Assembly: GCA_008632985.1 (NCBI GenBank) | Contig: QPGO01000014.1 | Location: 758,289 to 822,288, forward strand | From: Psammoneis japonica | Taxonomy: Eukaryota | DNA length: 64,000 bases | Reading direction: 5' to 3' | Part shown: positions 4,535-37,500 of the stretch, piece by piece | How positions within the stretch are numbered: the stretch's first letter is position 1 | How the letters are laid out: each line of letters opens with the position of its first letter | The notes under the pieces: model-generated | Database searches by the model: none | Told to the model about the DNA's origin: nothing | What the model saw: only the letters and a program-made list of their open reading frames with translations | Position numbers and translations under genes: made by a program

Positions 4535-4563
4535 GAGGAGGAGGAGGAGGAGGAGGAGGAGGA
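4535..4563. repeat. (GAG)n microsatellite
   Basis: Direct run of gaggaggag... Confidence 0.9.
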
Positions 4564-15410: not shown

Positions 15411-15489
15411 TTAAAAACTGCACCAGGGAAGAAGAGTGACTCCAATGGCATCTTTGATTCTTTGGACAAAAAAAAAACAAGCTCTGGTT

Positions 15490-18400
15490 TTAAGTGCTGT
15501 TGCACCTTTGCCCAGCAACACCGGCGCCAGCTAACCCACACTTCCAGTGCACCCTGCGAGGGATGAGGCAGAAGATTGTGCAATTGGCCGGACTTGGCAC
15601 CCCCGGATGGGGCGCCTGACGGAAACAGCTGAAGATGGTGCAAGTGCCTCTTTTTGCCAGGCGTTTGGCTTCTTTCAAGCTTTCTTTGAGTCTTGGGCGG
15701 ACCACAGAGATCCAATTTTGAATCCTTGTTGCAGCGAATGTACGGTGTTCTTCGACTGAATCCAGCAACACACCTCTGTCTTTTGCCAAGTGTTCCTGAT
15801 GTTTGTTGTAAATCGCCATTAGTTTGGCTTCCACCTTTCTTGTTGCAATGACTTACGAGACTCCATGTTGTGTCCATTCACCAGCTGGTTGTGCTCCTCC
15901 CACAGTTCCCACCAGCTTCTCCACACGCAGGAACCTGTCTGGACTGTCCAATCTGGTGGTTGTTTGTTTTCCTTGTGACATTGACGCAAGATGCCCGAGT
16001 CGCGAAGACAGCCAGATTGAAGGAGGTTCCACATGAATGATTGTCTGCCGCTGAAGATCTGTCGCCATCCTGTGTCGGATTGAGCTTTCCACAACTCCTT
16101 GCATCTACAATCCACGTTGTCCAAGATGCATGATTTCTTTGTTAAACCATGCCTGCAGCATCTCCAATAGAAAGTCATGGAGAGCAGGCATTGTGTCCAC
16201 TTTGTCGCAGCATTTTTGCAGGCCTTGTAGAAACTTTCTCCTCCACTGTTTGTTGTTTGGACATCGTAGGATGTGATCCCCATCTTCCATTGGATGATCA
16301 CATGCAATGCACTGGTGGGGCCGAACTGGATCATGTCTGTGTGCAATTTTGTTGGCAGGTGGCAAATCACAGACCAATTTGACCATGTTGACGTGTTGCT
16401 TTGAGTGGCGTTTCACTGGGACTGCGTGGGCTTTCCAATCAATTTGATCAACAACTGAAGGGTGCCATTGGTTGTGCTTGACAATGTGTTCAATCAGTTG
16501 GGGAGCAGTGGCTGCGCATCTGATCTGTTTCTTGTAGTTTGTCGTGATTGCACTGCCTTCTATCTTGAGGTGGGAATGGCAATGTGGAAAATGTTTCACC
16601 TGCACCGCATCATGTGGACAGTGTTCTTGACATGCTCCTGCCAATCTGTCAGCACGGATGTCAACACGAGCATTGAGAGGCAAAGTGTGAACAGGGGGGT
16701 GCCTGTCTTGATGTCCTTTGACCCAGAGGACAGGAGGGAGAGCAAGGTCCTCTGAATCCGAAAGCCGCAGCAGAGCTTGCTGGGTGTGAAGGATCTCATT
16801 CAGTGCGCCCCAGTCTGGCGATGGGGCATTGGCCCCATGATGGCTGACATGAAAATTGTGAGTGGCTTGAACCTCTTCATTGAGATCAATCGCTGGCAAG
16901 GTAGATGTCAATCAAGACAAACAGTCAACCAAAGCCTTGTTGTCACAATGGACAACTGCATCCAGAGGAGCATTAATTCGACAATGTTCACACAGTTGAA
17001 AGATGAACCATGCAATCAATGGAATGCCGCAGGCCTCCACTCGGTGTGATGACAGTGTCTTTCCAAAGACTGGTCCTGCGCAATCCACTGGTGGAGTCCC
17101 GTCTGGTGTGATTGTCCAACTGAAGGCAGCTCCCTCCTGGACAGACCCGTTGCTGCCTGCCATGAGAGCAGACAAAAGAAAATGCTGGATCAGAGATTGA
17201 GAAGGAATGTGCAGTGCCAACTCATCAAACAACGTTGATTCCCAAGATGACAACTGTTGAAGAGTCTTGAGAAATGAATCTGGCATAGCGGCAGGAGTTG
17301 AGGACGTCAATGAGGTACGCGGAATCTCAAATTGCCATCAACCGTCCTCAGTTGTGGACACTTCTACCGGACAGGAGTCTTTGGAAGGGGTTGGCACTGT
17401 CTCTGTTTCCACCATTGAATCTGTTGTTGTTCCATTGGCTTGAAAAATGTTGTGACCATCCAAAGTGCCTGCATGCAAATGATCTTCAGATGGAGAAAAG
17501 CATGCGGTAGATTGCACTCTCATCTGTGATGGTGGAACCAGCCAATTGCCCAAAGGCTCCTTTAATCAATGTGTTCTTGGATGACACAAACTTGAGAGCA
17601 GAATTTCTTCCACACAGTCCAGGCTCTTGAACAAGGTTTGTGTTGCTCAATGTCATTGAGAGTGATGGTGCTGCTGTGCAGGGAAGGATCTCCTTTCACT
17701 TTGGACCCATTGAGAGTTGTCCCATCTGAAAGAGTTACATCTGAAACTGATGAGGCCTGCAGATACAAGCGGCAACAGTTGGTCCAACGGATTTCCCTCA
17801 TGGAGAAAGTCTGGGACTGCAATGCCACATCCATCAAATGTTGATCATTGTCTTGTTGAAGTGGGAGTGCGCTGTTGTGAGATGAGAACACTTGGCCATT
17901 GATCTCATGCAAAAATGCTCAAACTGACGCAAACCAGCGCAATTCCATGTGAGGTAACACTGTCTCCACGTCCCACAAGAAACTGTCACCAGTCCCCAAA
18001 TTCAGCTGAATCCATGCCACTGCAATGTGGAGAAGCTTGTGCGGCTGATCTTCCCCGAGTTGCAACTGTGCAACTCCTCTCAAGTGCTTTGACAATTGCT
18101 GAAGTTGAGCCACCCCTTGTTCAACATCTAACAATCAAAAACCTCCTCCTCCTGAGGACTGTGGTCTGTACAGTGTGAGCCTTTCGGTGTTTCTGTTGCA
18201 TCCACATTTGGCAAACATTGTCCACATGGCCTTTTGTTGGACCTGTTGGAGTTCTTTTGGAAGGAAATTTGAGCCAGCCAGCACATGTGTCATCAAGGAA
18301 AGGTGACACGCGTGACAATGCCGCCATGTTTTCATTCTATCCAGCAGGCACGACCTTAGAAACAAGGCAACGGCATTGCTCTTTTTTTGCAATTTAGGAG

Positions 18401-19870
18401 CCATGCAGTGTCCCAGGGTTTTGTGGGGAGCACAAGCTGACAATTGCTGACTGCACCTGGAGGTGGTTTGGTCAGCAGAAAAGATCTCTGACTTGATGTC
18501 GTCATGGCAGGGGCAGATGTGCGGCTCACCATGTTCTGTAAAGTCCCATTCAATGGCGTGGAAACAACACTTTGGCAGCTCCAATTCTTGTCCTGCAGCA
18601 TCCAATGAGTCACACCACAACTGGTCATCCGATTGGAGAGACTGGGACAACTTGAAAGCAGAAGGCTGAGGACTGGCTCTGAAATCATTCACTTGCTTGG
18701 AAGTGTCGTCAACATGACCTCTGTTGTGGACTTGGATGTAAAACTGCCCATCTGGCGTTTCAAAGAAAGGAGCCACAACAGCTTCAATGTCAAAGATGTC
18801 AAACAGTCTGCTGCGTGAAGTGTTCCAGTGCAAGGGAGAATTGCCACTGCATCTTTGATTCTTTGGACAGATGTTTTGACACCATGGCCATGCAGCTGGC
18901 TCTCTGATGTCCTTCCAGTGTGGACTCTTCATCCTGAGCCATGACAGCGATGCTTGGCACATGGTCAGTGTTGCGTGTCTTGTTGATGAGCATTTTTTCT
19001 GCTTGGAAGATGGCATTCCACCTCCTGAACACCTGGAGAGCCAAGTCCAGAATGCCGGGGTTATCCCAGCTTGGAACATGAAGTGAAACAGACTTGGCAA
19101 GACTTTTAAACTCCAACATTGTCTCTTGTGTCAGGTCTGTTGGAAGAATTCTCATCATGTCTTGCACTTGTTTGTGTGGTTCATCCAAAGAAGCTCTCAC
19201 AGATTGCTTCAACTGAAACAATGCAAAAGAGGTCAACAAAAACAGAGACAACAGTGGAGGACAACCTTGAACTGGGGGCAACTGCATGGGGTCCATCGTG
19301 GATGCAACCAAAATGCTGCCCATGAAAGCATTCAATCTGCAAATGCAATGCAGCAAGACATCCAAAGCAGCAAGCAACTCTGCCAACACCTGTCAAAGTT
19401 TGTCTGTCAACAACACATCCACATTTCCTTCGGTTTGCCATGTGGTTTCATGATGGTGATTTCAGCTTGTCGTGCAAGGGACCTGTGACTGGGCCTCAGT
19501 CAAGACCATCTGTGCATGTGCCGTCCTGCCAAAGCCAATGCACACTCAGCCATGTGAGCTGTTGACAAAGTGGTGAGGCCACAAGACATTGCCTTGATGC
19601 CCGCTGTCTCCACTCTGCAAAAAGTTTTTCAACACCCCGGACCACCCGCAATGCAGACAGATTTTGTGGCGGTTCTAGTGTTTGCAACACAATCATCTCC
19701 AAACACAACATCTGCTGCTTCATTGTTCATGGAAAATGCAGAAAAAGCACACACCCACAGCTGACTTGCTCCACAGTCAACACACAGCAGCACACTTGCC
19801 AAATGTTTCATCACAAATCTTCAACAGGTCCCACATCATTCCATCATTTTCCTCCCTAGACTGAAAGTTT
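15490..19870 (-). mobile_element. Decayed non-LTR retrotransposon (RT + RNase H + C-terminal Cys/His motif)
   Basis: RT motif GHVDDT and LELPKC..H. CRLYLQ..SVSDVT..DG. RNase H motifs GSNGSV..GAAFSW, SSHRVEACG, VHCDNKALV, WVKGHQD, NARVDIRADRLA. C-terminal CIAC...EDGDHILRC. Broken by stops and frameshifts; ends approximate. Confidence 0.85.
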
Positions 19871-21465
19871 CACAAACCAAATTTCCCAAATCAACAAACA
19901 ATGTCAAAAGACTCATGCCATGTGAAAGATCAGTCCAGATGGGCCGCTGCAAGCTCTGGCAAAACAACAGGCAAAATGAAAATGAGAGCGGGACAAAAAG
20001 CCAATTGTGAGCCACTGGGACACATGTCACAGCACACTCACCAGGGCACCTTCCAGAGAAAGTTCTGTGTCACCCAGCCAAATTTCATGGCCCCAAGCAT
20101 TGCCAGCAGTTCCTGCATGACAGACAGTGAAGACAACACCATTGCAGAGCAGGAAAAAAGGGCCATTGTAGACCAGATGCATGCACGTGTGAACCAGACA
20201 CACAAAAAAAAGGCTCGTGAGGTGCACAACTTTTGCAAAAATGACTCTAAAACTCAATCAATCACAACACACTCACATGATTATCTTCTTTGGAGTGTGC
20301 CAAGTCTGTCTGACAAATGCCAACATGTTGTGAGCATCCCCAAGGCTCCACTGCATTGTTTTGTTTCCACAGTGTGCACTTTTCAGAAATTGTGACGCCC
20401 AAAAAATGGCACGCCACAATGACGAGCCAACCAAAACCCCAAGAAGCAAATTAATGGGATCACAAGTCCATCGAGGTGTCAACAACAGTTGCACCAAAGG
20501 ATGCAGAGTGGGGCGAAGTGCAAAGCTCCCAAATGGATGCAAAGTGCAGCAGTGATCTTCAGTGACCAGGAAAACAACATAAAACAAGAAAACACAGAAA
20601 AAACTTACCTCGGCAACGTGTCGACCATTCAGATGTCACCCGCACCGTCACGAGTCGATGAACTCAACCGTTTGCACCGTGTGCAGCACAACCAAAGCAC
20701 CCCAGGAGACCGAACCAATGTGTCAACCTCTTTGTGACAACAGCAAAAAAAGATCCCCCCCACACTGCGACATGCATGGCCGTTTCTTACGGAACGACAT
20801 GCCAAATCGGGAGCGTTTGAGTGGAATGAAGGAAATGAAGAGGATTCCTCGTCAGGCGTCCTTGTCAAGTTTGTCCCAAAATGGACTTCTGCTTTCTCTT
20901 GTGTCCACATCAAAATGGAATTGCGTCCTTGTCAAATTCCACCGTGTGCACAAGTTCCAGTGCAATCCCACTGTGCACGTCACATGGAGCCATTGTCGAT
21001 CCCGTCTGACCGTGGCCACCAAAATTTTTCACCACGCGAAAAAAAATTTTTTTTGTGGAACGAACTGCCACGGCGACATCTCAACCAGTTCCAATGGGCC
21101 GTTGCGGCCTCTCCATGAACCAATGCGGAGCGACGCAGACATCTTCTCTTCCTGTGTTGAGTGGTGTGTAGCAAGAGGACACATCCAACATGGAGATGCA
21201 TTGGTGCTCGACACAATGCTTCGATTCACCTTCGCCATCACGAGTCGGAATCTCTCGATGAGTGTCTTTTTCGATGAGTTTGGCATCTTGCTTCTATTCC
21301 TGCCAACTCACCCCTCGAGTTGAATCCCATAGAGAAAATGCGGCTTACACTAGCACACGATGACTCAAAAGCTGGGACCTTCACTGTCCGCGTCCGGTGC
21401 GAGGTGCGAGACGAGCAGCGCACGCTGCTGCAGCCAAAATGGATTCGTTCATACATGATGACGTT

Positions 21466-22052
21466 TGTCATGTGGCACAAGGCCCATTGTGGGTGATTGT
21501 GGTGATTTTAAGAGTCGTTCATGAAAAGTGAGACTATAAAAGTGTAAAATTATGAAGTGAATTTCTGGAGCGGTGATCTCGCGGAATGTTCTTTCGATTC
21601 TTTCTTTTCCAGAGAAATTCTGTTCTCGTTATGTAGGAACGTTCCTGGGTTCTTCTTTAAGTGTGTGTCGTCTAAGGGAACGTCTTGGGACTTCTGAGGA
21701 GGTCACGTATGGTGTCCGAAAGTGTCACGGGAAAAATCGAGAGATCCGATTCGCTCTTCATCGTTTCGACCGTTTTCTTGTGAGAATCGGATTGGCTGAA
21801 AAGGAACTTGAAGTTCGGCTAAGAAATGTCTTCTCGATTTACTTAGGAAGTGACACACGTGTCCAGTTGTTTACTATCGCTTTCCGCATGTGTCCGGTTG
21901 TTTATTTAGGAGGAAGATGTTGGACAATTGTTCATGTAGCATGCATGTGTCTCTTGATGTATGTTCACGTAGATGTACATGGGGTTCTGTCCGTAGTTCT
22001 CTATTGTTCTTTATGACGTCTCGAAGTGTCGGGTCATGAGCACGACGTGACA
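21466..22052 (-). repeat. 3' LTR of Gypsy 1 (mutated copy)
   Basis: Direct repeat of 27494-28079 with 9 substitutions and 1 indel by manual alignment. Confidence 0.97.
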
Positions 22053-22075
22053 CGCGCCTCCTCCAATGAATCGCA

Positions 22076-25000
22076 TCAGGGAGAGAAAGGAACGAGACGC
22101 CGCGCATTGACGGTCTCGAGGTAATTTCCTTTTTGGATGATGACGGTGCCATTGGACTTTACTTCATGTGTCTCGCATGGGCCAAGTCGGCGTAAGGCGA
22201 GTTTGGATCGACGAGGGTTGTCGTTTCGGAGAGAAACAAGGTCTCCCACTTTGAAGTCATGGTCGAGTCGCCGAGAGTTTTCACGCGCGTCATCTGCTTG
22301 CGCTTGTTGTCGGCGGCGAGCACAAATGGTCGGCCAGTGGACGTTGCATTGTAAGGGAAGGATCACATCTCTTCCAAAAGCAAGTTGGCCGGCAGAGGCT
22401 TGCATGACGGCATGCACCGTCGAATTTGTCGCCCAAGTTGCTGAGGCTGTTGTCGCATTCCACGGATTCGGTTGATTAAATGCGTCGGGATCATCGACTT
22501 GTTGGGCCCGCATGCAGCTCCACAAAACATCGTGGGTCCGTTCAAGCAGTGAATTCGCCTGTGGGTTCCGTGCTGTCACAGGTTTAGACTTGATCCCACA
22601 AGAAACTGGCAGTTCTTGAAATTCAATGCCTGTAAATTCCGCACCGTTGTCGTGTGTGCAATAGACCGGGCGCGGAAATTTGCATGACCACGCTTGGTCA
22701 AATGCTCTGGCAGCTTCCAGAGCTGAGACTGTGGAGATCTGCTCCACACCAAAACAATGAGCAGCTGGATCTGCCATCGTGAGGGCGGTTGACGTCAAAC
22801 TTCGTCGGTTGACACCGGCACCAGTGGCAAAGGTAATCGGTCCGACAGTGTCGACTGCTGCCTGCAACCAGGGGTCAATCTCAAGGGCTTGTGTGTCCTC
22901 AAGAGGTGTTTTTCCATACACTCTGCGGTTCTCTTTTGACTGTAGACAGGTCTGGCATTGGTCTACCTTGGTCTTGACGTCTCGGGTCAAACCTTGCCAA
23001 TGACAGCACTGCCTGAGGGTCTTTTCCATTCGTTGGATACCTGGATGGCGTAAATTGACATGATGCCAGTTCAACAGAGGTGCTTGTAAAGTTGTGGGGA
23101 CAACAATCTTGTCCTTAAAAAGGACTGGGCGCAGGTGTCCATCCTGCACCATGCAACTGCAGTCAGACAATTCTTTCCGACTCGGGTCGGTTCGAGTAAG
23201 TTGCAATGCTTTTTTGCACGTAGCATCATCTTGCTGTGCTTCAATAATCGTGTCAAACGAGATAGGACAATGAGTGTTATCGTCGTATTCAAAGGCGAAA
23301 CACTCTTCCAGCGTTGGATCTGCAGCTGGCATCTCTGGGTCGCTAGTCGTGGTCGCGGCACGTGATAAGAAATCCGCGAGCACATTTTTTGCTCCCGGCA
23401 GGTAAAGAATCGTGGGACCAAATTCCTCAACGATCAGTCGCCAACGACATGCGCGGTCTGACTTGAAATTTGCAAAGGTCAGATTCTTGTGATCCGTGTA
23501 GATCGTGATCCTATGACCCAATAGGATGTCACGATACTCTCGTAGCGTCATAACTGTCGACAGTAGTTCTTGTTCGATAACTGGATGTCTTTTTTGTGTG
23601 TCGGAGAGTTTGCGGGAGTAGAACGCTATCGGGCGCTTGTCTTGAATGACAACGCTTCCCAGCTGGTATTTCGAAGCATCGGTGTAGATGTAGAACATCT
23701 TATTGAAATCAGGGTAGGCAAGAAGCGTCTCGGTAGAGATCCGTCTCTTAATTTCTTGAAACGCTTGCTCGTGTTCGGGTTTCCACTCGAACTTGACCGC
23801 TTTCGAGGTCACACTCGAAAGAGGTGCCAATAGATGGGCACGAAGTCGCCACATCTCGCGATAGAAGTTTATCATTCCAACAAAACCTCTGAGTTCTTTC
23901 TTTGTTTTGGGCGAAACCAAATTCATAATCGCATTGACTTTCTTGGGTTGCGGTTTGATTCCGTTTCTAGCAACAACAAACCCTAGGCACTCCGTTTCTA
24001 GAGCGCAAAAGAAAGTTTTTCGCAAGTTTACTCTAAAGCCTGCATCATTCAAAAGCACAAATGCTTCGCGCAATTGGGCGAGGTGATCATCAAAGGATCC
24101 CTTGCCAATAATCAACAAGTCGTCGATAAAAATCAGAACGAATTCCAAGTGTCCTAGCAAGTCAGTCATGACTTCTTGGAATGCATCTGGGGCTGGTGCA
24201 AGTCCCATTGGTAATCTGCAATGAGCACATTTGCCGAACGGCAGCACAGCAGTCAGATGCTGCTGACTCTTCTGGCTGATCCGTATCGTAAAAAATCCCA
24301 TGTTCAAATCGATCGCTGTAACATGAGCACAGCCATGCAGCTTTCGGAGCATGGTTGGTGTCAAAGGTAGAGGCCATGGGCGTCGTTGCATGCGTTGATT
24401 TAACAGCCGAAAGTCGGTGACAAATCGGCAATCACCACCTTTCTTCGGCATGAACATTGAGGGAAATCCCCAAGCTGAGTCTGAGATCCTTCTCAGAACT
24501 CCTACTGGCATAATCTCTCTGCTTCTCCTTTTGCCATGTTGCAGTTGATCTGGGGTATGCTGCAAGGTCGGCACATGATGGGCTCGGTGCCGGGCTTAAG
24601 CTCAATGTTGACCGGTGGTCGCTTGACACAATGTCCGAGCTCTCCTTGCGTGAGACTGGAGAAGTCTTCTAGCAAAGTGACAAGAGCTTCACCTTGCTCT
24701 CTCGACAAGTGCTCGGGCACACACTCTTGTAAGTCCTCTGTGGGACTGTGGTCATTTGGGCGAATGGCTTTGGCCTTACGAGCCGCCATGAGCTCTTCTT
24801 GCGTCGTCGGTCGGTGCCAAAAATCCTCGGGATATCTCATCGGAAAGGACAAGTCATCCCAAGCAATGACTTTTTCCTGGAAATCAAGCTTCATTCCAAG
24901 CTTGAATGGAACATCTCGTCCTGCAACAGCATCATAGATTCCTTGTGATGATGAAACACAAAAGCACAAATCGAACTGTCTGTGCAAGGATGTGTCAAGG

Positions 25001-25245
25001 AATCGACAACGAGTGAGTGCGACATGAGTTGTCTGATGGGTCTGCGCAAACAAGGTCTCCCATCTTGTTGGTGCTAAGGTGGCCTCATCCAGTGCTTCTT
25101 TTGAGAGCACATCTCTCTTTGTTGTTGTTCGACTGCTGCCGCTGTCGAGTGAGGCGAGTGGAACATTGTTGCTTTTGTCTCGAGTCCCATCAACTGGATC
25201 GAGTAGTTGAAGTCGCACGATGCATCGGGGTTCTTCCACTTGCAT
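22076..25245 (-). pseudogene. pol: Gypsy 1 pol (protease, RT, RNase H, integrase), frameshifted near 24540
   Basis: ASLDSGSS protease; FVTDFRLLN, RLPMGL, FIDDLL RT; YTDASKYQLG, AFYSRKL, YTDHKNL RNase H; HPG..R, DTVGP, HDNGAEF, NPQAN..LER integrase. Confidence 0.93.
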
Positions 25246-27323
25246 TTTTGAGGCTTTCGTGCTGCGTGTCTTCTCGGCTTCTTGTTGCCACTTTGCTCCT
25301 CTTCTTGTTCTCTGAGATGGTCAGACATGCCATCTCCAAAGACTTCTTCTTCTTGGTGGAACCAAGTACGATACTCTTCATCATCTAGGTACACTACACC
25401 AGGTTCACAGTAAAAGAAATCATGATCACTGGATGCACTCAAATGCTCGTAACCATCACTCTGAGGGTCTGGTTCAGGCATTCGTGCTGCTGGTTGTGGC
25501 TCAGGCGCCACGGCTGGCATAAGTTCATTCGTCATATAGATACTCTCTTCATCGGTATCGGACTCTGGAGCCGCTGACATTTTCTTATCGGACTCGCTAT
25601 TCATGAGTTCGTCTGCCGATACAGCTCGCTTCGTCTTCGAGGCAGTTGCTCGATGAGAAAGTGAGCGACATTGCTCATGTGTGTAGGGTTCGGTGTCTTC
25701 GGACGTTTTCGAATGTCCTTCTTCTTCTTCGAATTCGTCTGGGTCACCTGGAACATATAAGTTCCTTCTCGTAGGATATATGCCCCCATGAGGGAACACT
25801 ACGTAGTCGCAATCGTCCATTCCATCTGGATATAATGCTTCTATCAACTCCTGGGCGTCCGTGCTGTTGTCATGCTCGAAAATTGATGATGTCAGAGATG
25901 CGCACTCATCCGCGCTGTCTGCTGTAGCCTCATACTCGTCATCGGCATCTTCTCCAAAAGATGACAGCTCGTCCATAGACGACATACGTAAGGTTGTCGA
26001 CGATACTGTTGACATACTACTAGCGGTACTCCACAAATCATCGCTGTCTGACGATGTTGATCCGCTGTGCGGCACGAATTCCGGCATGCTGGATGCATCA
26101 GTTGTTTCTGCTGGGTCCATGGGAGGTCTCTGTCTCTGTTGCAGCTCAAAGTCTTCTGGCAACAGAACGCAATAGTTCTCTTCCACGTAAGTATCATATT
26201 CTCCGTCTGATTCTTCATAAGAGTAACTCGTATCGTCTTCTGGTATCTCAAGTCCGTCTTCTTGTTCATAAGATTCAGGTTCAGAATCATCTCTTATGCT
26301 AAGTTGTTCCAGTTGTTCAGCTGGGGCTGAGTCTATACTGTTGTCCGGGTTCTGGACTGGTAGAGCTTCTTCTGGCTCGTGTACGGCACGTATTTCTTGC
26401 CGGTTCGTTCGGGTACGTCCTCTCTGTTGACCATAGCCTTGAGGACGGTTCCTATCACGCTGTAAGTTGGCTTGGTATCGAGTAGGATATCTATGTGGTT
26501 GGTTGGGAGGAGCTCCGGCGTTGTTATTGTTATTATTGCTCGGTCGTGTCGCTCGGTCGCCTCCATGTCCGTATGCGGTTCGGTAGCCGTGAGTGGGGAT
26601 ACGTCTCTGGAATCGCCGTTGGTTGTTTGACAACCTTCTCTCTTGTTGGGCCTTCTTCTTCTGTAGGAAGGATTCAATGGTGGAATAGTATGTCTCCAAG
26701 TCTGCCATACCATACTCACCTCTGTGTCCGACGGATAGTTGGAATCTCTCTCGCCAATCATCCGGCACAGCATGCTCTGCTGCATAAGTTAACTCTTGGT
26801 CCGTGAGAGGGGCTCTCTCTTCTGCAGAGCCTCTCATGTAGGGTACTAGCTCATTGATTTCCGAAATTCTGGAGGTGAATTCAATGAAGGTAGTTTCTCT
26901 TGGCTTGCGTATGGAGCGCAAGTACTGCTTCTGCACTGCCGCTGAGTCTCGAGGAAGCAGTCCAGCAGTGACTGTCTCTACTGCTGTATCAAACTGTTCA
27001 GGGGTAAGTTCTTCTGGATTTTCAACTAGAGCTCTTACCGCTCTCTGATATCGGTCCTTGATGGAGCCTCTGGTTAGGCATAACATCTGGCAATGAAGTA
27101 CTGGTCCTGTTGTCCAGTGCTTGACCGTTCTTAGCTCATTAAAGTCTTTTAAAAAGACTAGGTACTTCTCCTTGATGGAGGTATCACACTGATGGATATA
27201 AAATGCCACCGTGTCTTCCGGTTCTCCCGGGTCTGGCGCAACCTTGTACTTGATTAGGCTCGCAACGTCGTCCGCTACTTGGGGGTACGACTTGTATAAC
27301 TTCACAATCGCTTGACTAGTCAT
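25074..27323 (-). CDS. gag: Gypsy 1 gag-like ORF with long acidic C-terminal region
   Basis: 749-aa ORF between the 5' LTR and pol. QKQYLRSIRKP...F.SRI.EIN matches the gag of Gypsy 2 (LQKRCLRRFMRKP...RAVEIN). Confidence 0.85.
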   Translation of the reverse strand: MTSQAIVKLYKSYPQVADDVASLIKYKVAPDPGEPEDTVAFYIHQCDTSIKEKYLVFLKDFNELRTVKHWTTGPVLHCQMLCLTRGSIKDRYQRAVRALVENPEELTPEQFDTAVETVTAGLLPRDSAAVQKQYLRSIRKPRETTFIEFTSRISEINELVPYMRGSAEERAPLTDQELTYAAEHAVPDDWRERFQLSVGHRGEYGMADLETYYSTIESFLQKKKAQQERRLSNNQRRFQRRIPTHGYRTAYGHGGDRATRPSNNNNNNAGAPPNQPHRYPTRYQANLQRDRNRPQGYGQQRGRTRTNRQEIRAVHEPEEALPVQNPDNSIDSAPAEQLEQLSIRDDSEPESYEQEDGLEIPEDDTSYSYEESDGEYDTYVEENYCVLLPEDFELQQRQRPPMDPAETTDASSMPEFVPHSGSTSSDSDDLWSTASSMSTVSSTTLRMSSMDELSSFGEDADDEYEATADSADECASLTSSIFEHDNSTDAQELIEALYPDGMDDCDYVVFPHGGIYPTRRNLYVPGDPDEFEEEEGHSKTSEDTEPYTHEQCRSLSHRATASKTKRAVSADELMNSESDKKMSAAPESDTDEESIYMTNELMPAVAPEPQPAARMPEPDPQSDGYEHLSASSDHDFFYCEPGVVYLDDEEYRTWFHQEEEVFGDGMSDHLREQEEEQSGNKKPRRHAARKPQKCKWKNPDASCDFNYSIQLMGLETKATMFHSPHSTAAAVEQQQREMCSQKKHWMRPP

Positions 27324-27493
27324 GTCCTCCTGTACTGTATAAGTATTATCTTGAGGTAACGCTCTAAAGTACTATTCTTCAGTTCCGTCGAACTGGGGGC
27401 TACGTACGTAGGCTTTCTTCGCCTTAAGTAGAATGCTCAGTACTATGCTGAGAGGCGGTATTATTATAATGATACGCCACTGTTTGATCAAAA

Positions 27494-28079
27494 TGTCATG
27501 TGGCACAAGGCCTATTGTGGGTGATTGTGGTGATTTTAAGAGTCGTTCATGAAAAGTGAGACTATAAAAGTGTAAAATTATGAAGTGAATTTCTGGAGCG
27601 GTGATCTCGCGGAATGTTCTTTCGATTCTTTCTTTTCCAGAGAAATTCTGTTCTCGTTATGTAGGAACGTTCCTGGGTTCTTCTTTAAGTGTATATCGTC
27701 TAAGGGAACGTCTTGGGACTTCTGAGGAGGTCACGTATGGTGTCCGAAAGTATCACGGGAAAAATCGAGAGATCCGATTCGCTCTTCATCGTTTCGACCG
27801 TTTTCTTGTGAGAATCGGATTGGCTGAAAAGGAACTTGAAGTTCGGCTAAGAAATGTCTTCTCGATTTACTTAGGAAGTGATACACGTGTCCAGTTGTTT
27901 ACTATCGCTTTCCGCATGTGTCCGGTTGTTTATTTAGGAGGAAGATGTTGGATAATTGTTCATGTAGTATGCATGTGTCTCTTGATGTATGTTCACGTAG
28001 ATGTATATAGGTTCTGTCCGTAGTTCTCTATTGTTCTTTATGACGTCTCGAAGTGTCGGGTCATGAGCACGACGTGACA
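27494..28079 (-). repeat. 5' LTR of Gypsy 1 (TA-retaining copy)
   Basis: Direct repeat of 21466-22052. Confidence 0.97.
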
Positions 28080-29167
28080 CGTTGCCGCGGCGTGCGCTCT
28101 ATGTGGCTACATAAGCTAAACTAGATCACTACTAAAACGACAATAGATTGCAATTTTGATTTTGACAACTAGAGTACTAGAAGATATCAATCTACTTAGC
28201 TCGCTAGTCCACTCTAACAATCTTGTGGCCTGGATCGCGGCTGCAGCGGCGTCTTCTATTCAAACACAACATAGCACTCTTTTTCTCCACACTGTCAATG
28301 AAATCAATGAAACAGCTACAAGCTTTTCATATTCCATATTGTCATCGCAGACTCCCACATTCAATTTGCAATATCTTGAATACACATTCACTGCATTGCT
28401 ATTGGAAACATCAATGCATGAGTCTTGCTTCCATCAAAAAACAAACAATCAATCCCAACACATGATGTCCAAATCAGATCACTCGTCACCAGCGACATCA
28501 TTATCGGGCACTACATTGGATCCTTGGGAAAGCCCAAACTCGCCCATATCATCTCCTACCTCCTCGTTGATCGGATCGAACTGCTCCTGTACGGTGCGGG
28601 CTCTTTCCTCCTTTTCACGCTGCAATACAGCCCATTCCCAGGTTCACAAACTTATTCAACACATAAAAAGAGATTGTTAGACAGCGAGTCATGTGGGGAG
28701 AAACCTGTTTGTAGCACAAACAAACGACTTTCGTCGATTTCACGGCAAACAAACAACAATTTGCACATTTTTTGCCAATTCTCTCTCTTGGAACATACCT
28801 TGCTAGTTCTTTCGCATTACAGCTTTGTTAATCATACAAAGACGTTTACAAAACGCACCTGGACGTCTCTGGGCATTGCCTGGTTGCCAAGAAAACACAC
28901 CGAAAGTTGATCTGATAGCATGATTGTTTGATTCGTTCCCCAAAAAAAAATCTTTTCTTCTTTCGCTTGCTTTCGCGCGTTGAAAATTTTTTTGGTGGCC
29001 ACGGTCAGACGGGATCGATAATAGAAGTATTAATACCTAGGGCCCTACCGGTAGGTACGGCGGTAGCTGGATTGCAAACACACGATGCATTACCAAACTA
29101 TTGCGCTGAGGCAACAAAGAAGAGCCAGCTTAGACTCTCTTTAGAGTATAGAGGGCTGTTCTACATC

Positions 29168-30517
29168 ATGTCGTCCAATCCGTCGTTGTGGACGCTGTCG
29201 TGTTTGTTGTTGTTGTTGTCAACAGCATCAGTGTCCGCCTTCTCAACGCCAGCAAGTGCATCAACATCGCGGGTCGACATTGGTCAAACTGCACCCCGGA
29301 ATATTTTTGGGATGCAAGAGTGGGCCAAAACGAGTGGCGTTGAAAGTTGCAAAGGCTTTCGGTTAACCAGTGATCCTGTAGATGAACAAGATTGGTCAGT
29401 TTCGACCACAAAATCGTTGTCGGTCAATGAAGTGGTCGTTACGGTACCATCTCAAATTATTCTGTCCAGTAATGACGTGATTGACACACAAATCAATTTA
29501 CAACAAGCAGAGGTTGTCCTAGAAGAGAACGATTTGGAAGATCAAATTCCTCTTTTTCGGTTGTATGTCAATTTGCTGCTACAATATGAGCTTGGAGATC
29601 AATCTCCATGCTTTCCATGGCTCAATTCTTTACCACGACGATTTTACAACGGTGTAATGATGACATCGGCATGCTTCGAATGCTTACCTCCTTATGTCCG
29701 TTACATCGCTGAGAAAGAATGTTACACGAGTCAGTGTTTTCAACAAGCTCTTCAATACGCCGAAGCAATTTCAGAAATGACAATGTTGAACACAGACTTG
29801 CTCAACTGGGCCTATTGTGTTGCCGTCACACGATCCTTTGGAGTCAACACTGGTGCTGACAACGACAAGACATGTCGAGTTATTGTGCCCATGGCAGACT
29901 ATCTTAATCACGGGAGTTTTGAAAACGAAGTTGAGCTAACCTTTGATCAAGATGGGAACTGCATTGTCTATGCTGCGCGGGATGTATCTCCCGGAACGCC
30001 TTTACGACTATGCTATGGAGATCCCACCAATCCGTCCATCTTTTTTGCCACCTACGGGTTTCTCGATAAGTCCTCCCCTGCCACATTTTGTAAACTAATG
30101 CATTTACAACAAGAAATGGCCGAGTTGAAGCTAGACTTCTCGGATTTGCTATTCTACAAAGACACTGGGGAAATTTCCCCTCAAGTTTGGGATCTTCTGT
30201 TGTATTCCATCCTGAAACAAGAGCAGCAAGTTTCGGAAGAAGATCTACTACAAGGATTCTATGACGCATATGCGGCAGATGATGTTGACACCAAGAATCT
30301 CTATCATCAACACTACTTCCAACACACATTGCAGGCGCTCCACGATCACGTCGATGGGATGCTGAACGAACTAGAGTCGCTTTCGGAACTGGCAAAAACT
30401 TTGGACATTGCGAAACACCCCCGTCTCTCTCTCATTAAACAACACAATGATTTTGTCAAAACTACATTTCTGAAAGTCAAAGCCAATTTGAATGCCATGT
30501 CCTCTGGTGATCAGTAA
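29168..30517 (+). CDS. Plastid-targeted SET-domain (Rubisco LSMT-like) lysine methyltransferase
   Basis: Signal peptide ending VSA|F (ASAF-type). WAY..A.TRSF, IVPMADYLNH and LCYG.......FATYGF SET motifs. Single exon. Confidence 0.9.
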   Translation: MSSNPSLWTLSCLLLLLSTASVSAFSTPASASTSRVDIGQTAPRNIFGMQEWAKTSGVESCKGFRLTSDPVDEQDWSVSTTKSLSVNEVVVTVPSQIILSSNDVIDTQINLQQAEVVLEENDLEDQIPLFRLYVNLLLQYELGDQSPCFPWLNSLPRRFYNGVMMTSACFECLPPYVRYIAEKECYTSQCFQQALQYAEAISEMTMLNTDLLNWAYCVAVTRSFGVNTGADNDKTCRVIVPMADYLNHGSFENEVELTFDQDGNCIVYAARDVSPGTPLRLCYGDPTNPSIFFATYGFLDKSSPATFCKLMHLQQEMAELKLDFSDLLFYKDTGEISPQVWDLLLYSILKQEQQVSEEDLLQGFYDAYAADDVDTKNLYHQHYFQHTLQALHDHVDGMLNELESLSELAKTLDIAKHPRLSLIKQHNDFVKTTFLKVKANLNAMSSGDQ

Positions 30518-30619
30518 GTCCAGTTGGCACTCGTAAGATACGGTAATTGTCAGCATCCCCTCTAGGAACTACAGACACTTTTTCGGATGTCTAATAAGCT
30601 GTTCGCTTTTTTCGGATGT

Positions 30620-33600
30620 CCAATGCACTGTCACTACAAATGCCTTAGATCCTGTCACATGCTCATGGTGTGCCGACAGCTTGGCACTGAGCGACTGTGG
30701 TGCCAGCAGTCATGGCCATGTGAACATGTCCACAAATGACAGGCAGACAAAGCCTTTGTGCACGTCTGCTCTTTGTTGCTTCCGAAGACAATTGACCAAC
30801 AAGGATGCGGCCAACCCAAAGAACATTGCAGCAGTGAGACATGCAAAGTGATGCTTCATTTTGCACACTGTGCAGTCTTGCACTTTTCTCTCATGTGTCC
30901 AATGAGATCAAGCAAATGGGTGCACATCGTGTTCGGTGCTGGGGAACGCTGCTTTGGGGAAAATCTGTTCTCAAAAATGCAGCTGGGTTTCCTTTTGGCA
31001 TTTGTCAAGCATTGATGAGGTCACAGCAGTTGTTTACAGTTTTGGCACACAGTGGCCATGGTTGAATGATTTTAGTCACTGGTGCTCAGTGTCAACAATG
31101 CCGGGTGCGGTGGGCGGGCCACACTTTCCACCCCCACGAGTCTGTGCATTGGCCACACCTCGTGCACTTCACACACCCTCAGTTGCATGCAAACTCTCAC
31201 AGAGCCGGGATGGACAACATGTGCCAGGTTTGCATGTGCGCCTGTGCCCCAGCGTGGCTCAAGAAATTGCCTTGCCAAATCCTCTGCAAGGCATTCTGCA
31301 CAAAATGTGCCAAAAAATGTGCCGGCCACACCATGGTTTGATTGCATCATCTCATCAAAGCCAGCATGCCATGCTGACCAACAGTTGCTGTCAAATCTTT
31401 TGCAAAAATGTGCTGTGGCGCATTGGAGTGGAAAAAATTGGTGGCTCTCGTTCCACTCAATTTCATTCAAGACCAAATGAGGGCAAAAAATTTCCCTGTT
31501 TTGGCCAGCACTTGCTTGTGCCATCAACTGTCATTGTGTGCTCCACTCCATCATGCCATTGGAGATGCATTGTGACAATGCTCTGCAGCTCTGGACAACT
31601 TGCAAGCTTTCCCTGGATTTGTTTCTGGGGCAATTGGCTTCTCAAACCACCAAATTGGAAAATCAGACTTCTTGCAATTTCATTGCAACTTCTTGTCCCC
31701 ATGTGGGCCAAACGTCCGGACAAGTTTTTGTGGTCAAAGCACTTGACATTGAAGCTGTCAAGCAACTTGTGGAGAACTGGTCTGCCAACCAAGATGGAAG
31801 GCACAGCCTCACTTGCTTCTGAACAAAGCCTTTGTTTGCAAGTTTCTTGCTGCAATGTGAGCATTCAAGGTTTTTGTGCAAAAGATTGGTGCTGGTGCAG
31901 CAAATAGAAAGTGGGCTGCTGGCGAGGTGCTCTCAACTCCAATGGCATCAATGTCCAGCACAGCTCTCTTCAAAGCTGATGCAACAGCAACCCTCAAATC
32001 TGATTTCTTTCGGTGCATCTAACGGAGCTCTCTCTTCCAACTGCATTGATCATTGGCCATGCAACACACCAACACTGTCCTTTGTTTCCAAGCATTGCTG
32101 CCAGGGAAAATTGCAGTGGCAGTTTGTTTGTGCAATGATTTCTGCACATTGCTGTTCCATGCTTTTTATTTGGCATTGCCACTTCCAGCCCAATTCAAGC
32201 TGGGATTGGGCTGGTTGAGATTGTGCTGCAGGAGGTGGCAGCTGCAGACTAAAGTGCAAAATGTGCATGGAAATCATTGCACAACTGCAACTTTCCTTGC
32301 TTGCATGTGGAGACACCCAGCACCTCTTGTGCCCACACACATGCTTGTGGCATGCCTCCAGCTCAGCACTGGCTGTGGTGCCAGCAGTCTCAACAATGTG
32401 AGCACATCCACAAATGACAGGTGAAGCCTTTTGCGCACATCTGCTCTTTGTTGCTTCAGAAGATGATTGACAAAGGACATGGCCAGCACAAAAACATCAC
32501 AACAGCAAGACATGCAAAGCGATGCTCCATTTTGCACAGTGCACAGTTTTGCACTTTTCTCTCATGTCCAAAATGAGATCAAGCTTTTTTCATGTTTTTT
32601 GGAGATTTCAAGATGGTTGCATCAATTTCTCACCTCTTGGGTGGACTCAGTGCCACTGGTGATGCTTCAACAGTGCTGCCAAGCTCAAGAGGCAAGCTCA
32701 TGTGACAACATTGTGAGTTGTCAGTCTGCAAAGTAACTCACTCAAAAGGGCTTGTGCTTTTTGCAGGTCAGTGCTGTGAAGTGTGAAGAAGAGTGACTCC
32801 CAGAGACAATGCTGCACATCTTCCAGCCTGAACCACCCAGCTCAAAAACCAGTTGTCCAAACAGACCATTGCATTGCTCATCAACAGAAACCACTCTCAT
32901 GGCTGCTGCAACAAATTTTTTTTGGCATTTGGAGCACTGCCACTGATCTCACAAGGCCCTGCATCCCCCACTCCCACCACCACTTCTGTTCACTTGTGCA
33001 GCCAACTGTGCTTGTTGGTCTGTGCCATGGCTCACATTGAACATCCTTGTGCAAAATGGGTGCTTGTTCTTGGACTGTGTGTCACATGCTTCCTGGGCTG
33101 TTGGGAAGTGTCTGGTCTGTGTGGTCAGAGCACTGTGCACCATCTTGTGTTTCCAGCTGACCAACAACATGAGGGACACATGGCAAGTTGGCAGCAGGGC
33201 TTTTTCCATCATTTGTTTCATCAATGTCACTTGTTCTGCAGCTTCATTTCACAGTCTAAAAATTGACATGAATTCCTGAACAACTCTGAATGACAATCAG
33301 CACAGTGCAGGGCCATTTGCCTTTCCATTGACTCCAGCCAACCTGGAAAGGTCTTCAATCTGCTTCCCATGTGGGGGGCACCTCAAGAACACTCTTGCAC
33401 CTTGGATCACAGAGAATCAAAACAAAGAACCAGAGCACCTTTCCCACCCTGTTGACCACAAGTGTTGACACACAAACATTGTGCTCATGCTGTGTTAAAC
33501 ACCCAGTGCAAGACCTTGGAAAGAATTGCTTGAAAAGTCATCTGCAGAAGCAACAGCTGACCAAAACATGTCGAGGCAGTGGGGCTGCCCGCAACTTCAA

Positions 33601-34300
33601 AAAATGGCCTTTTGTCACTGTCGACTTGCCACGCACCTCCAATGTGCTTGTTGGATGCTCTTCAGGTGTGATTGCCACTTGATTGTGAACGTGGAAGCCA
33701 CTGCACAAACAACTCATTCACGATGGTGGGTTGCCACCAGGACCTTCTTGTGCACTCACTGACTGGGGCCGATTTTTCACTGCCGCAACTGGGTCTTTGG
33801 ACACAGTCGTGGGCCAGGGTGTGGCTGGCCCACTTTCTCTCCCTGCGATCATGCCATGCAGTCTCTGCATGTCATGCAACATCATGCAAACCCAACTGAC
33901 CAAAGAAAGCTTGGTCATCAATGAGCACTTTCATGCCTCAGCCCTCACACACAGACTCCACATGTGAAAGCACAGCAGGGCCTGCTGGGGGGGATGCCAC
34001 ATTTTTTTAATTCTGAAATCACCCCACTGCATCCAAAGGCTTGGCAGCGGTGGCTGTGGTGCTGTGTTGAACACTTGGGTGTTGCCACATGGGCATCACT
34101 CCCACAGTGCATGTTCAATGGAAAGCAACAGCAGTGTCGGTCTGTACGATGATTTCTACATACATGTGTTTTGTACCTTTGTCTGTCACTGCCACCTCGC
34201 TCCAGCCCGATCCCAAGCATCGCACAGACAGACTGCCACTGCGATTTTCCTTGCTTGCTCGCTTGGCGACACGCGACACGTAGCCGCGCGCGACACGATA
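30620..34300. mobile_element. Block C: decayed retroelement-like DNA with ~255-bp degenerate direct repeats
   Basis: TpA/CpG-depleted. 30655-30913 and ~32338-32584 are diverged direct repeats ending ...cacttttctctcatgt..aatgagatcaagc. Family not determined. Confidence 0.65.
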
Positions 34301-34523: not shown

Positions 34524-37500
34524 ATGGCGGCAAAGAGAGTTCCTGCAAATGTTTCAGAAACCGGCGACGAAACGACAATTGGTCTTCTACCACGAGGGAG
34601 TAGCTGTGCTGCTGAAACGAGATGCCAGTCGATTGGTCCATTTTCTGCTGCTTGTAAAGAGAGTGATGAAATCGGTTTTCTTTACTTGGACAATTGCACC
34701 GTCGTCGTTGCATCATCTTCCAAAACGCCCGAGGTTACGACGGGAGTTTGGCACACGGTAGACGTGGAACGCCAACATGTCGTCTCTCAAGCGGTTCCAT
34801 ATCGAAAGTATCAAAGAGTCATGACACCGACGGGGAATCTCCTACTTGCACTCGCTGTAACCTTGTTCTACAGATAGCTGGAACTCGCACCAACACTTCG
34901 TCGAAAAGAGAAGGCGCTGGCACTGCCGATGGGCTCCCCGAAAATATGTATCTTACAATAAGTGACGATACACCTCGCTTTGATGGAGCAATTGGAAATG
35001 CTGTCTGCAAACCGAGTTCGTGTTGCTCTCCACATGGTTGCAACCGCAGGTCTGATGCATCCTTGTTGACCGGTCTTGCCTTGATGTGCCAAGATTACGG
35101 GCACGTGAAAGTACGAAACATTGGCATTCTGCTCTACAAACAGGCACACGACATGAAATTGGCTACGGATGAGCCATCTTGTGCGAGTTATCGAGCAGCA
35201 CTCGTGATTTCTGTTGCGATTCCTTCTCTCATGATGCCCATCAACCCCGAACGGGACCAACCACGAAGCGCACGCCAAAAAAGGAGAAGTGCTCCAACCA
35301 AAATGTTACCTCCCTGTACCCAACTTCTTTTCTCCATTGTTCGAAGTGACTGGGTTCACCTATTTAAACAAATGGATGAAGCGAGGTTGTTTCAGGTTGA
35401 CTACCAAAAGCACCAAAACATGTTTCCTGCTTCCATGTCACTTGAGGAGGTACGAGCCACTCTACTCTAGACAACGCCGGCGTCAGTGATATCATTTTGT
35501 ATTTCTCATTTTGGTTAATTTCGTGTTTCTATTCATTCTACTGTGCAGCTCTACCTTCGCTTGCAAGGATCGGCCAGTCATGCGCACAAGTCTATCCCCT
35601 TTGACTCGTCCAAGACATTGACAAGCAATCAAGACGAATCATCTGGAAAATTTTCTTTAAAGGCTGTGCCCGAGGATATTTTCTGGACCAATGTGACTCC
35701 CTATTTAAAAGCAAAGTCACTTGACTCTCTTCGGTGCACATGCTTGCATTTTCATCGAATTCTCCGCTCTGCCGTTCCTGGCTTGAAGCTTCGGCTCTAC
35801 AGGCACCAAATCAAGTCTTTGGATTGGATGAGACGACGAGAAGTTAGAGTACTAGAAGAAAAGGATATCTTGAAACACGCCTCTGATGACTGTCCTGACA
35901 TCTGTGTGGAAGGTGAAGCTGATTTGCATAGAGCCATATCGGGAGGAGCGTCGGTAAAGCTAGAAGTTAGACCTGGATCTGAGTTGCAATTCTCTCAAGG
36001 AAAAACGAGAGTGATACGAATAGATCCTCGTTATGGAAATGCAGGTAAAATCAGTCAGATTGAGGAAGCTGGAGTATCCAGAAAGGTTGCACGAGGAGGG
36101 CTTTTATGCGACGATCCAGGCCTGGGCAAGACAATTACAGTACTCTCTTTAGTTCTCCAAACGTTTGGATTGACAACAACAACAAAATCCACCTCGTCGA
36201 AGGCCGGAAATGACAGAACGAGCAAAGACAGAATCAACGACGAGATTTTTTACGCTTATTGGAAGGAGCAGGTTACTTCTTGCTTTCGAAAGCCGGAGTT
36301 GAACAAGCTGATTGTCTATCTTGCAAGACAATGTCCCGATGATTCATGGTATTTTTCATTTCCTGTCGATCCCATAAAGCATGATCTTCCTAACTACGCG
36401 GACGTTGTTCACCATCCTATCTGCTTCAAAGACATTTCAGAAAGGATACAGAAGGACGAATATGGGACGGACTTTGATCGTTTCTGCGAGGATGTGAAGC
36501 TATGTTTCAGGTAAGATCTATCGCCTACTACTTTGTTCAACATCATAGGCGCCTAACGTTGTCATATGCTTTCTTTGACAAACCATCAGTAATGCCACAT
36601 TGTATTATCCTAGCGACAACCCAATAAGTCTTGCAGCCGGGCGGTTGTCTACGAAATTCGAGGAGCTGGTGGCTGAATTTAAAGAGAGGAATGTTCAGTC
36701 GGCGAAACGGTCATTTTCCAGTGCTGTATCAAAGCCAAATAGCTCTGTAGCTTCGATTCTTGAACGACGATCTAAGCAGAGACTGATTGAGTCTTTGGTC
36801 CAGTCATCCGCAACGCTTCTTGTCGTCCCAGGTGTGCTTTTAAACCATTGGCAGGTACGTGTTCTTTGTTTTTAATCAGTTTCGGCATCTACCCGAGACG
36901 AATCCTAATGAATTCCTCCCTCCGTCTTTCGTCAGGAGCAACTCAGCCTATACATGGACACAGCATACCTCACGAGCAAGATTCCCATTGTCTTTCACTT
37001 CGGTCGGGACACTCGTGATGGCATGAGTGCGGTTGACGTAATGCATTTTTCACAAATGAAAACTCATTGCCCCCTTATATTTATCGACCATTCACCTGCG
37101 AAGCCGCTCCCACGACCTGAGTTTCTTGCCATGTTTTCCATTGTCATCACCACCAACCAAAGACTTTCAAATGAGTGGAAGCATGGCAGTTTCAGTGACG
37201 AGCTGAAGCAAGCTGACGGAGACGCACTTGGAACCATTCTTAGTAATCCCGAAACGGCTTGTCCTCTGTTAAAAGTAAGATGGCTTCGTCTGGTCGTCGA
37301 TGAAGGACATGCCATGGGTCGAGGGACGAACAACAATTCGATACGCTTTGCGTCGTGGATTGAGGCAGAGCGTCGATGGGCAATGACTGGAACTCCGACC
37401 CCCCAAACCGTGTCTCAAAGTGGGCTGAACAATTTGAGGGGGCTCATGGTCTTTCTCCAACATGAACTATTCTCTGCTCGTCTCGACGGAGACAAAATAT

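Follow-up and report, generated by a model that had tools for sequence, protein, structure and literature searches.

TpA loss in old repeat blocks and across part of a recent Ty3/gypsy retrotransposon in the diatom Psammoneis japonica

A 64,000-nucleotide stretch of the Psammoneis japonica genome (contig QPGO01000014.1 of assembly GCA_008632985.1, positions 758,289–822,288 of the forward strand; hereafter the window, with positions counted from its first letter) contains old repeat blocks that have lost nearly all of their TpA dinucleotides, together with a near-complete Ty3/gypsy-type long terminal repeat (LTR) retrotransposon of 6.6 kb on the minus strand, Gypsy 1, which carries the same signature on one side. 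The two LTRs of this element have diverged since insertion at TpA sites of one copy only, and exposed TpA is scarce over most of the pol and protease frames, while most of gag is TA-rich. The explanation preferred here, with a probability of about 0.8, is TpA hypermutation of silenced or foreign DNA in the diatom host, with Gypsy 1 caught part-way.

Asymmetric TpA loss in the LTRs of a single insertion

Gypsy 1 was assigned to the Ty3/gypsy type by its paired LTRs with TG and CA at their ends, a target-site duplication, a polypurine tract and the order protease–reverse transcriptase (RT)–RNase H–integrase. Since the pol domains lie on the minus strand, the left LTR in window coordinates (21466–22052, minus strand, 587 bases), which is the mutated copy, is the 3′ LTR, and the right one (27494–28079, minus strand, 586 bases), without any private TpA loss, is the 5′ LTR; repeat finding and alignment gave 98.3% identity between them. 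The target-site duplication CGTT is intact (left copy 21462–21465, right copy 28080–28083), and one of the assembled X1 contigs, with a depth of 39.8 (about 66 for single-copy DNA), joins position 21434 to 28079 with 25 intervening letters that resemble the left flank. This empty site, either allelic or paralogous, confirms the borders, and together with the intact duplication it identifies one single insertion event. The sequence-only reading that preceded this analysis had placed the element at 22076–28079: the element proved real and near-complete, but this interval omits the left LTR.

The left LTR contains 24 TpA and the right LTR 33, with 33 CpG in each. At all nine substituted positions (9/9) the left LTR has CA or TG and its partner TA, and besides these the two are distinguished just by a one-base indel in a run of G (the extra G on the left); no CpG change and no ordinary substitution was found in the 587-base comparison, and at none of its 33 TpA sites did the right LTR read CA or TG where the left one has TA. 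Because the LTRs of one insertion start identical, this difference of nine changes on the left to none on the right was acquired in place. The left-LTR losses depended on sequence context, with 8/18 exposed sites, 1/13 half-protected sites and 0/2 TTAA sites affected (p = 0.02), which is the same ranking as in the old blocks; at exposed sites the loss of 8/18 on the left contrasts with 0/18 on the right (p = 0.003). Exchange with a distant copy is disfavoured by the intact target duplication and by the lack of further substitutions. This asymmetry is the only part of the loss demonstrated to postdate the insertion, and part of the loss in pol may have been inherited. Read as a footprint and not as a measured rate, the excess over background amounts to 9 TpA changes against 0 others in the Gypsy 1 LTRs and to 26 columns of the TA/CG type against 1 transversion in the LTRs of a second, later-stage element of the window, Gypsy 2.

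TA-free blocks, direction of change and sequence context

The process has gone furthest in five blocks pooled for analysis (1–8500, 11250–20500, 31000–33750, 44000–46250 and 59900–61400; 24,254 bases), which were compared with 20,754 bases of genic DNA of the window. The pooled blocks contain 94 TpA against 1669 expected (0.06; 0.55 in genic DNA) and 276 CpG against 1369 expected (0.20; 0.92 in genic DNA), while CpA and TpG reach 1.86 and 1.84 times expectation (1.23 and 1.21 in genic DNA). The G+C content barely differs between the blocks (47.5%) and genic DNA (47.2%), since the TpA loss and the CpG loss cancel in base composition. The block at 11250–20500, to the left of Gypsy 1, has both dinucleotides nearly gone. 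Block boundaries are sharp, with the genes spared, and at block edges in the window the TpA loss tends to extend 250–900 bases past the CpG loss. X1 contigs of single-copy depth reproduce the block sequences at 18000–18703 and 19213–19613 with 0 differences and at 28994–32000 with 1 difference; this exact agreement at a depth of about 66 identifies the blocks as real DNA and not a consensus artefact. An artefact of consensus calling at modified bases was accordingly set aside for the old blocks, while single sites in the young element are still exposed to it. The affected state extends beyond sequences that are still repeated. The region 30750–32000 is TA-free at single-copy contig depth (66–74), its contig having a small internal duplication of 30755–30896. 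A 133-base tandem pair lies within a TA-free block at 3414–3679.

Within the blocks, tblastn with 11 of 120 pol homologues as queries found one decayed integrase, at 44218–44859. No Pfam family was found in 15 open frames of the old blocks, the sole match being a sub-threshold one to SPIDER (E = 0.007). TAA and TAG are missing from the blocks, which results in long false open frames.

Three independent lines give the direction of change as TA (and CG) to CA or TG. Gypsy 2 (54452–59755, approximate ends, minus strand; TA-free blocks on both sides and a frame break near 56508), whose pol shares 36–39% amino-acid identity with that of Gypsy 1, served as a later-stage comparator. Its LTRs differ by seven CA-versus-TG doubles, five single changes of the TpA type, five single changes of the CpG type, one transversion and one indel, and 26/27 substituted columns are transitions at TA/CG sites; the doubles imply an ancestral TA or CG that mutated once in each LTR. 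At 25 columns where Tyr is conserved in the 120 homologues, a single Tyr is left in the Gypsy 2 pol, with His at 12 and Cys at 8 columns, and Gly, Ala, Asp and Pro are retained at 94–97%. A replacement of Tyr by His or Cys corresponds to TAY becoming CAY or TGY, and the pol of Gypsy 1, with eight such replacements, provides the third line. Both strands are represented: His and Cys stand in a ratio of 4:4 in the Gypsy 1 pol and of 12:8 in that of Gypsy 2, and T-to-C and A-to-G in the left LTR in a ratio of 5:4. This balance, together with the equal excess of CpA and TpG, demonstrates that both strands were mutated alike and excludes editing of the sense RNA or of a single cDNA strand.

The loss spared TTAA, with 31 copies in the blocks versus 35 in genic DNA, compared to 63 versus 758 for all remaining contexts (p = 2e-15). 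ATAT (0 in the blocks versus 61 in genic DNA) and ATAC (1 versus 107) were the most sensitive, and the other contexts were intermediate; of these preferences only the sparing of TTAA is firm. A strict rule that T-to-C never occurs after T was tried and failed, as T precedes the His codons of columns 91 and 125 in Gypsy 1 and of columns 206 and 337 in Gypsy 2, for which the codon mapping is reliable only to about column 398. The persistence of CpG is highest in CCGG and CCGC. The decay of CpG to TpG or CpA is roughly ten times slower per site than the TpA loss: in the Gypsy 2 LTRs, where most TpA was already gone, there were 5 single changes among about 40 CpG sites. TpA loss thus comes first and CpG decay later.

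Profile along the interior of Gypsy 1

For the interior, exposed TpA was set against its two products with the index VTAB/(VTAB+VCAB+VTGB), where V is not T and B is not A. A change-point scan over 650 exposed sites placed a switch at 25535, with an index of 0.135 on the left (377 sites) and 0.37 on the right (273 sites); the likelihood-ratio statistic of 48.5 was reached by 0/500 shuffles. Inside the depleted part, an island at 23466–23965 (minus strand), roughly corresponding to RNase H, had an index of 0.395, while neighbouring bins had 0.07–0.13. A profile of TA loss along the element had been called for by the sequence-only reading: run with this index, it reproduced the contrast between left and right but not the gradient claimed there, being a step near 25535 with one spared island and no smooth slope.

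Expressed as observed/expected ratios, exposed TpA was 0.15 in the left flank, 0.44 in the left LTR, 0.15 in integrase, 0.66 in the linker with RNase H, 0.33 in RT, 0.17 in protease and 0.42 at the end of gag, rising to 1.15 in gag (25501–27371) and 1.83 in the 5′ untranslated region, with 0.76 in the right LTR and 0.82 in the right flank; genic DNA had 0.63. At 27251–27500 the observed number of TpA, 27, was above the 19.4 expected. The encoded proteins differed correspondingly in their Tyr content (4.8% in gag, 0.7% in the protease frame and 1.5% in pol), and 7/13 Tyr of pol fell within amino acids 301–400. In comparison with the 120 homologues, the Gypsy 1 pol kept Tyr at 5/26 conserved-Tyr columns, as against 285/431 residues kept at other conserved columns (Fisher p = 3e-6). 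Tyr was replaced by His at columns 91, 125, 337 and 511 and by Cys at 123, 203, 666 and 807; among the homologues the mean number of such His/Cys is 0.53 and the largest 3, as opposed to these eight. Four of the five surviving Tyr (245, 294, 326 and 398) are located in or beside RNase H. The earlier claims that the left LTR, integrase, RT and protease are hit, with GKCAHC, ETECLG and WHH as sites of damage, and that the RNase H patch is only lightly hit, therefore hold, these motifs being among the Tyr-to-His/Cys columns. The same applies to gag and the right LTR, described there as untouched, apart from the depleted end of gag.

The pol protein departs from the column majority at 167/457 conserved columns (homologues: mean 64, maximum 138) and, judging from the sequence, is probably inactive. 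Since the His/Cys changes occurred at columns that are 95–99% conserved, they were not filtered by selection. This unselected layer, with 8 His/Cys among 13 Tyr/His/Cys columns (62%), can be set against the loss of 8/18 (44%) in the left LTR, and we give an even chance that it arose in place.

Flanks and other copies of the family

The left flank (20500–21465) had TpA ratios of 0.06–0.34 and CpG ratios of 0.76–1.05 per 250 bases. An inverted repeat of about 33 bases, with its left arm at 20992–21024 (plus strand) and its right arm at 28990–29022, may bound an element of about 1.4 kb that was split by the insertion of Gypsy 1. The sole difference within the 33 bases of the arms is TG on the left versus TA on the right, and the halves of the split element had an index of 5/52 on the left versus 29/94 on the right (p = 0.004), with CpG normal in both. 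Both flanks, representing the putative 1.4-kb element, are repeated in the reads, with a depth of 300–950. An insertion-free haplotype or copy had 3 more TpA and 2 more CpG in the left flank over 21107–21434, so that Gypsy 1 itself could be the source of the affected domain.

The comparison with other copies of the family covered 40 of 1184 differing places, on assembled contigs, which drop alleles. Within this limited list, 27/35 transitions set TA/CG against CA/TG, and the ratio of places where this copy was more mutated than the others to those where it was less mutated was 9:0 in the left flank, 6:4 in integrase and 2:5 in gag. In gag, this copy had TA/CG where others had CA/TG at five listed places, with the reverse at two; since other copies are mutated there, the gag sequence as such confers no immunity. 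The spared parts, right LTR and gag, are repeated to the same extent as the mutated ones (summed depth 370–1240). The LTR, inverted-repeat, flank and single-copy data favour a domain defined by place, and they do not indicate where it started. Targeting by position or chromatin instead of homology, as the sequence-only reading had proposed, is thus supported for the LTR pair (8/18 versus 0/18 exposed sites) and is plausible for the interior.

Proposed explanation and its alternatives

The features to be accounted for, all of them observed, are the dinucleotide signature, its direction, its dependence on context and the LTR asymmetry acquired after insertion. According to the preferred explanation, the host would hypermutate silenced or foreign DNA at TpA by T-to-C or A-to-G changes on both strands, largely sparing TTAA, and this loss, with a slower decay of CpG, would convert old repeats into TA- and CG-free blocks at constant G+C. 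Gypsy 1 would be a recent insertion whose 3′ LTR, facing the old block, has lost 9/33 TpA since it arrived and whose 5′ LTR has lost none. The base at TpA might be modified or deaminated inside a bounded chromatin domain with its edge currently within Gypsy 1, and a candidate for the enzymatic step would be an ADAT2-like adenine deaminase, the type of enzyme put forward for Bigelowiella natans. Entry of the domain from the old block on the left, which the sequence-only reading took as the origin of the spread, appears somewhat doubtful.

Several observations weigh against this explanation, or at least against a simple form of it. Exposed TpA in integrase (0.15) and protease (0.17) is lower than in the left LTR (0.44), although the latter is nearer to the old block; this does not fit a simple wave from the left, leaves the spread from that block unproven and suggests that pol was already TA-poor at insertion. 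Along the profile, the index switches at three or more points (near 23466, 23965 and 25535), a pattern that a recombinant cDNA would show. Gypsy 2 likewise retains most of its TpA in the RNase H region, and part of the spared island may be intrinsic to it. Ten conserved Tyr are Phe in Gypsy 1, a change that TpA loss cannot make, and several of these Phe are common to the closest foreign homologues (9 Phe in P0005 and 8 in P0012), so that part of the low Tyr content is ancestry; a replacement of Tyr by Phe as an escape specific to this family, considered as a candidate, is weakened because its nearest foreign homologues share many of these Phe. Furthermore, at 19923–19924 and 21180–21302, where the window reads CA or TG, X1 contigs of single-copy depth show TA or CG (or CA against TG), and none of those aligned there has the letters of the window; the same process may have made the haplotypes differ, or the consensus may be in error.

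The most serious alternative is that Gypsy 1 arrived as a mosaic, with integrase, RT and protease TA-poor from the beginning, either as a cDNA recombinant formed by template switching or as a member of a lineage with defective pol that was moved by others, so that only the changes in the left LTR and flank occurred in place. The stronger depletion of integrase and protease relative to the left LTR and the abrupt switches near 23466, 23965 and 25535 would follow naturally, the family has many copies (1319 contigs at ≥85% likeness), and the pol, with a number of off-majority columns above the homologue maximum and no Pfam integrase core, is probably inactive in an element whose LTRs have no ordinary substitution. 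On the other hand, the His/Cys layer of pol (62%) is close in extent to what the left LTR has lost since insertion (44%), and the agreement of the mutated side among the element, its flanks and its LTR pair would need a coincidence; we consider such a mosaic possible, at somewhat less than even odds. The multi-copy nature of the family could also have led the assembler to join two copies, one contributing the part from the 3′ LTR to protease and the other that from gag to the 5′ LTR: the best run contains only 69% of the sampled words of 20500–30400, and none of the contigs listed spans Gypsy 1. Yet the CGTT at both ends and the contig joining the flanks without the element place both ends in one insertion, and two independent copies of so widely divergent a family are unlikely to match so well that their LTRs differ only at TpA, which makes such a chimera improbable.

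Two further alternatives concern the chemistry of the change. Gradients produced by the editing of retroviral cDNA are known, and the direction in Gypsy 1 resembles them, as its depleted part is the 3′ one (protease to 3′ LTR) and its spared part the 5′ one; ADAR-like or APOBEC-like editing of RNA or single-stranded cDNA during retrotransposition might thus be invoked, with gradients running 5′ to 3′. It is very improbable in view of the equal involvement of both strands (4 His and 4 Cys; 5 T-to-C and 4 A-to-G in the LTR), of a difference between the two LTRs of one insertion, which is not a product of reverse transcription, and of the same loss in flanks outside retroelements and in the single-copy-depth DNA at 30750–32000. 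The opposite direction, in which a process like repeat-induced point mutation (RIP) changed CpA to TpA in gag and the right LTR and left the other side untouched, draws on the fact that CA/TG-versus-TA differences between LTRs are directionless by themselves and on the excess of TpA at 27251–27500. Several observations contradict it: Tyr residues conserved in the 120 homologues are His or Cys in Gypsy 1, so that the ancestral state of pol was TA; the CA-versus-TG doubles of Gypsy 2 are impossible from CA-to-TA changes; no region of the window combines an excess of TpA with a loss of G+C; the 765 codons of gag form an open frame, in which C-to-T changes at CpA would have introduced TAA and TAG stops; and the lost LTR sites obey the context rule of the blocks. 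We regard it as extremely improbable.

Returning to TpA hypermutation of silenced or foreign DNA, a more specific and, in our estimate, unlikely version would be that silent diatom chromatin bears a heritable symmetric mark at TpA, a second palindromic-dinucleotide mark beside CpG methylation, whose mutagenic decay would erase TpA hundreds of times faster than ordinary mutation. Such a mark would be limited to domains, would creep in cis from old repeats into a new insertion and would leave TTAA immune, and retrotransposon lineages under this pressure might respond by exchanging essential Tyr for Phe, thereby shedding target sites. If this were true, Gypsy 1 would be the record of a moving boundary, with the 3′ LTR and pol inside and gag and the 5′ LTR outside.

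Anatomy of Gypsy 1 and its genomic surroundings

The coding part of Gypsy 1 consists of three minus-strand frames: gag at 25074–27371 (765 amino acids, TA-rich to the right of about 25535), a protease frame at 24502–25320 (272 amino acids, with a DSG motif and a −1 offset from gag) and a stop-free pol frame at 22076–24595 (839 amino acids for RT, RNase H and integrase, with a −1 offset from the protease frame). The polypurine tract (22053–22067, minus strand; GGAGGAGG) adjoins the 3′ LTR and, in element orientation, stands just before the LTR start TGTCA, and the very TA-rich 5′ untranslated and primer-binding region occupies 27372–27493 (minus strand). The Pfam search matched pol to RVT_1, RT_RNaseH, RT_RNaseH_2 and Integrase_H2C2, with no match of pol to the integrase core (rve) and none at all for the protease frame. 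No canonical slippery heptamer (XXXYYYZ) for a programmed −1 frameshift was present in the gag/protease or protease/pol overlaps, and no tRNA primer-binding site was clearly recognised beside the 5′ LTR. There is no further DNA copy of Gypsy 1 within the window. In the reads, the summed contig depth over the element is 370–1240, compared to about 66 for single-copy DNA, and by identity the family contigs are divided into 326 (≥99%), 339 (95–99%), 368 (90–95%) and 286 (<90%). In protein searches with pol, the best identities were 46% for near-length and 54% for shorter matches, the best named relatives coming from Mayamaea and Cyclotella and the identity to the protein collections being 40–54%; no relative of gag was found among the metagenome or viral contigs searched.

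The genes of the window are eukaryotic and include a weak SET match, an SNF2/RING/helicase protein with a bromodomain, an ABC1 kinase and a leucine-rich repeat protein. The named relatives of the ABC1 kinase are all diatoms, at 48–55% identity (Seminavis, Nitzschia, Mayamaea, Cylindrotheca, Fistulifera, Epithemia and Pseudo-nitzschia). Two adjacent open frames at 35519–39227 jointly encode the SNF2 ATPase with bromodomain, RING finger and helicase C-terminal domains, a gene of the chromatin-remodelling type situated between repeat blocks. Next to the ABC1 kinase gene, the 250-base bin 41501–41750 contains 37 CpG and only 3 TpA. A 1.7-kb island with normal TpA and CpG (9250–10900) is flanked by two TA-free blocks and includes a tandem repeat of hexapeptide type at about 9740–9970, while a tandem array with a 108-base period, its 10 copies being 60–85% alike, fills 62825–64000 and continues past the end of the window.

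Significance and comparison with known systems

The process seen in the window is a new instance of a kind that has been described only very recently. The LTR pair represents a natural experiment, in which initially identical sequences acquired 9 versus 0 changes across 6 kb, and it speaks for place over sequence pairing; the sparing of TTAA and the context-dependent speeds constrain the enzyme. In practical terms, the scarcity of TAA and TAG produces long false frames and the conversion of Tyr to His or Cys alters proteins, both of which mislead annotation and the dating of insertions by LTR divergence.

As an element, Gypsy 1 resembles other diatom Ty3/gypsy elements in the order gag–protease–RT–RNase H–integrase, in its TG..CA LTRs and in the short target duplication, but differs from them by its low identity (40–54% at best) and by the arrangement in three frames that are separated by two −1 shifts without a canonical slippery site. 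The loss of CpG to TpG and CpA in the old blocks and in Gypsy 2 is like the deamination of 5-methylcytosine in methylated transposons, which does not explain the TpA loss; in the Gypsy 1 LTRs, CpG loss is so far absent.

RIP of Neurospora and other fungi converts CpA to TpA, lowers the G+C content and mutates both copies of a duplication. What it shares with the process in the window is a burst of transitions at a single dinucleotide, resembling a genome defence, by which transposons are inactivated and a strong footprint in dinucleotide composition is left. In the window, unlike in RIP, TpA is destroyed, the G+C content is unchanged, no stop codons are created and the host is not a fungus. 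Moreover, one LTR of the pair was spared (9 changes versus 0), and a symmetric trigger by repeat pairing does not fit this one-sided loss.

A search of the literature on diatom hypermutation, RIP-like processes and TpA/CpA/TpG yielded a single relevant source, a 2026 preprint on the chlorarachniophyte B. natans (10.64898/2026.01.13.699255), and no report from a diatom. Within this search, it is the only description of TpA-specific hypermutation of foreign DNA; the terms diatom, context, trinucleotide, CpG and retrotransposon are absent from its main text. According to it, 230/231 new mutations that arose in mutation-accumulation lines in two integrated viral regions, one from a giant virus and one from a virophage, were A-to-G or T-to-C, with all of these changes on TpA according to the authors, at a rate about 1000 times above background and in only some of the lines. 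The main mutated region is single-copy and transcriptionally silent; the authors suggested an ADAT2-like adenine deaminase and reported 124 TpA-poor, CpA+TpG-rich clusters, including reverse-transcriptase and DDE domains (10.64898/2026.01.13.699255). Such a single-copy silent target fits targeting by position or chromatin.

On the basis of that main text, the two systems have in common transitions almost exclusively at TpA, with both TpG and CpA as products and on either strand, a confinement to regions of foreign origin far above background in targets that need not be repeated, and a lasting footprint of reduced TpA and elevated CpA+TpG. The same signature in a diatom, near complete on retrotransposons, would imply a widespread algal genome defence. 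The differences, within the same limits of the source, are that new mutation was seen arising in B. natans and is known here from its footprint alone, and that the present host is a diatom with LTR retrotransposons and old repeats as targets, which have come near saturation (TpA 0.06) in contrast to the viral region of B. natans (TpA 0.45). Beyond the account given for B. natans, TpA loss in the window is accompanied by CpG decay, spares TTAA and has its boundary within one young element.

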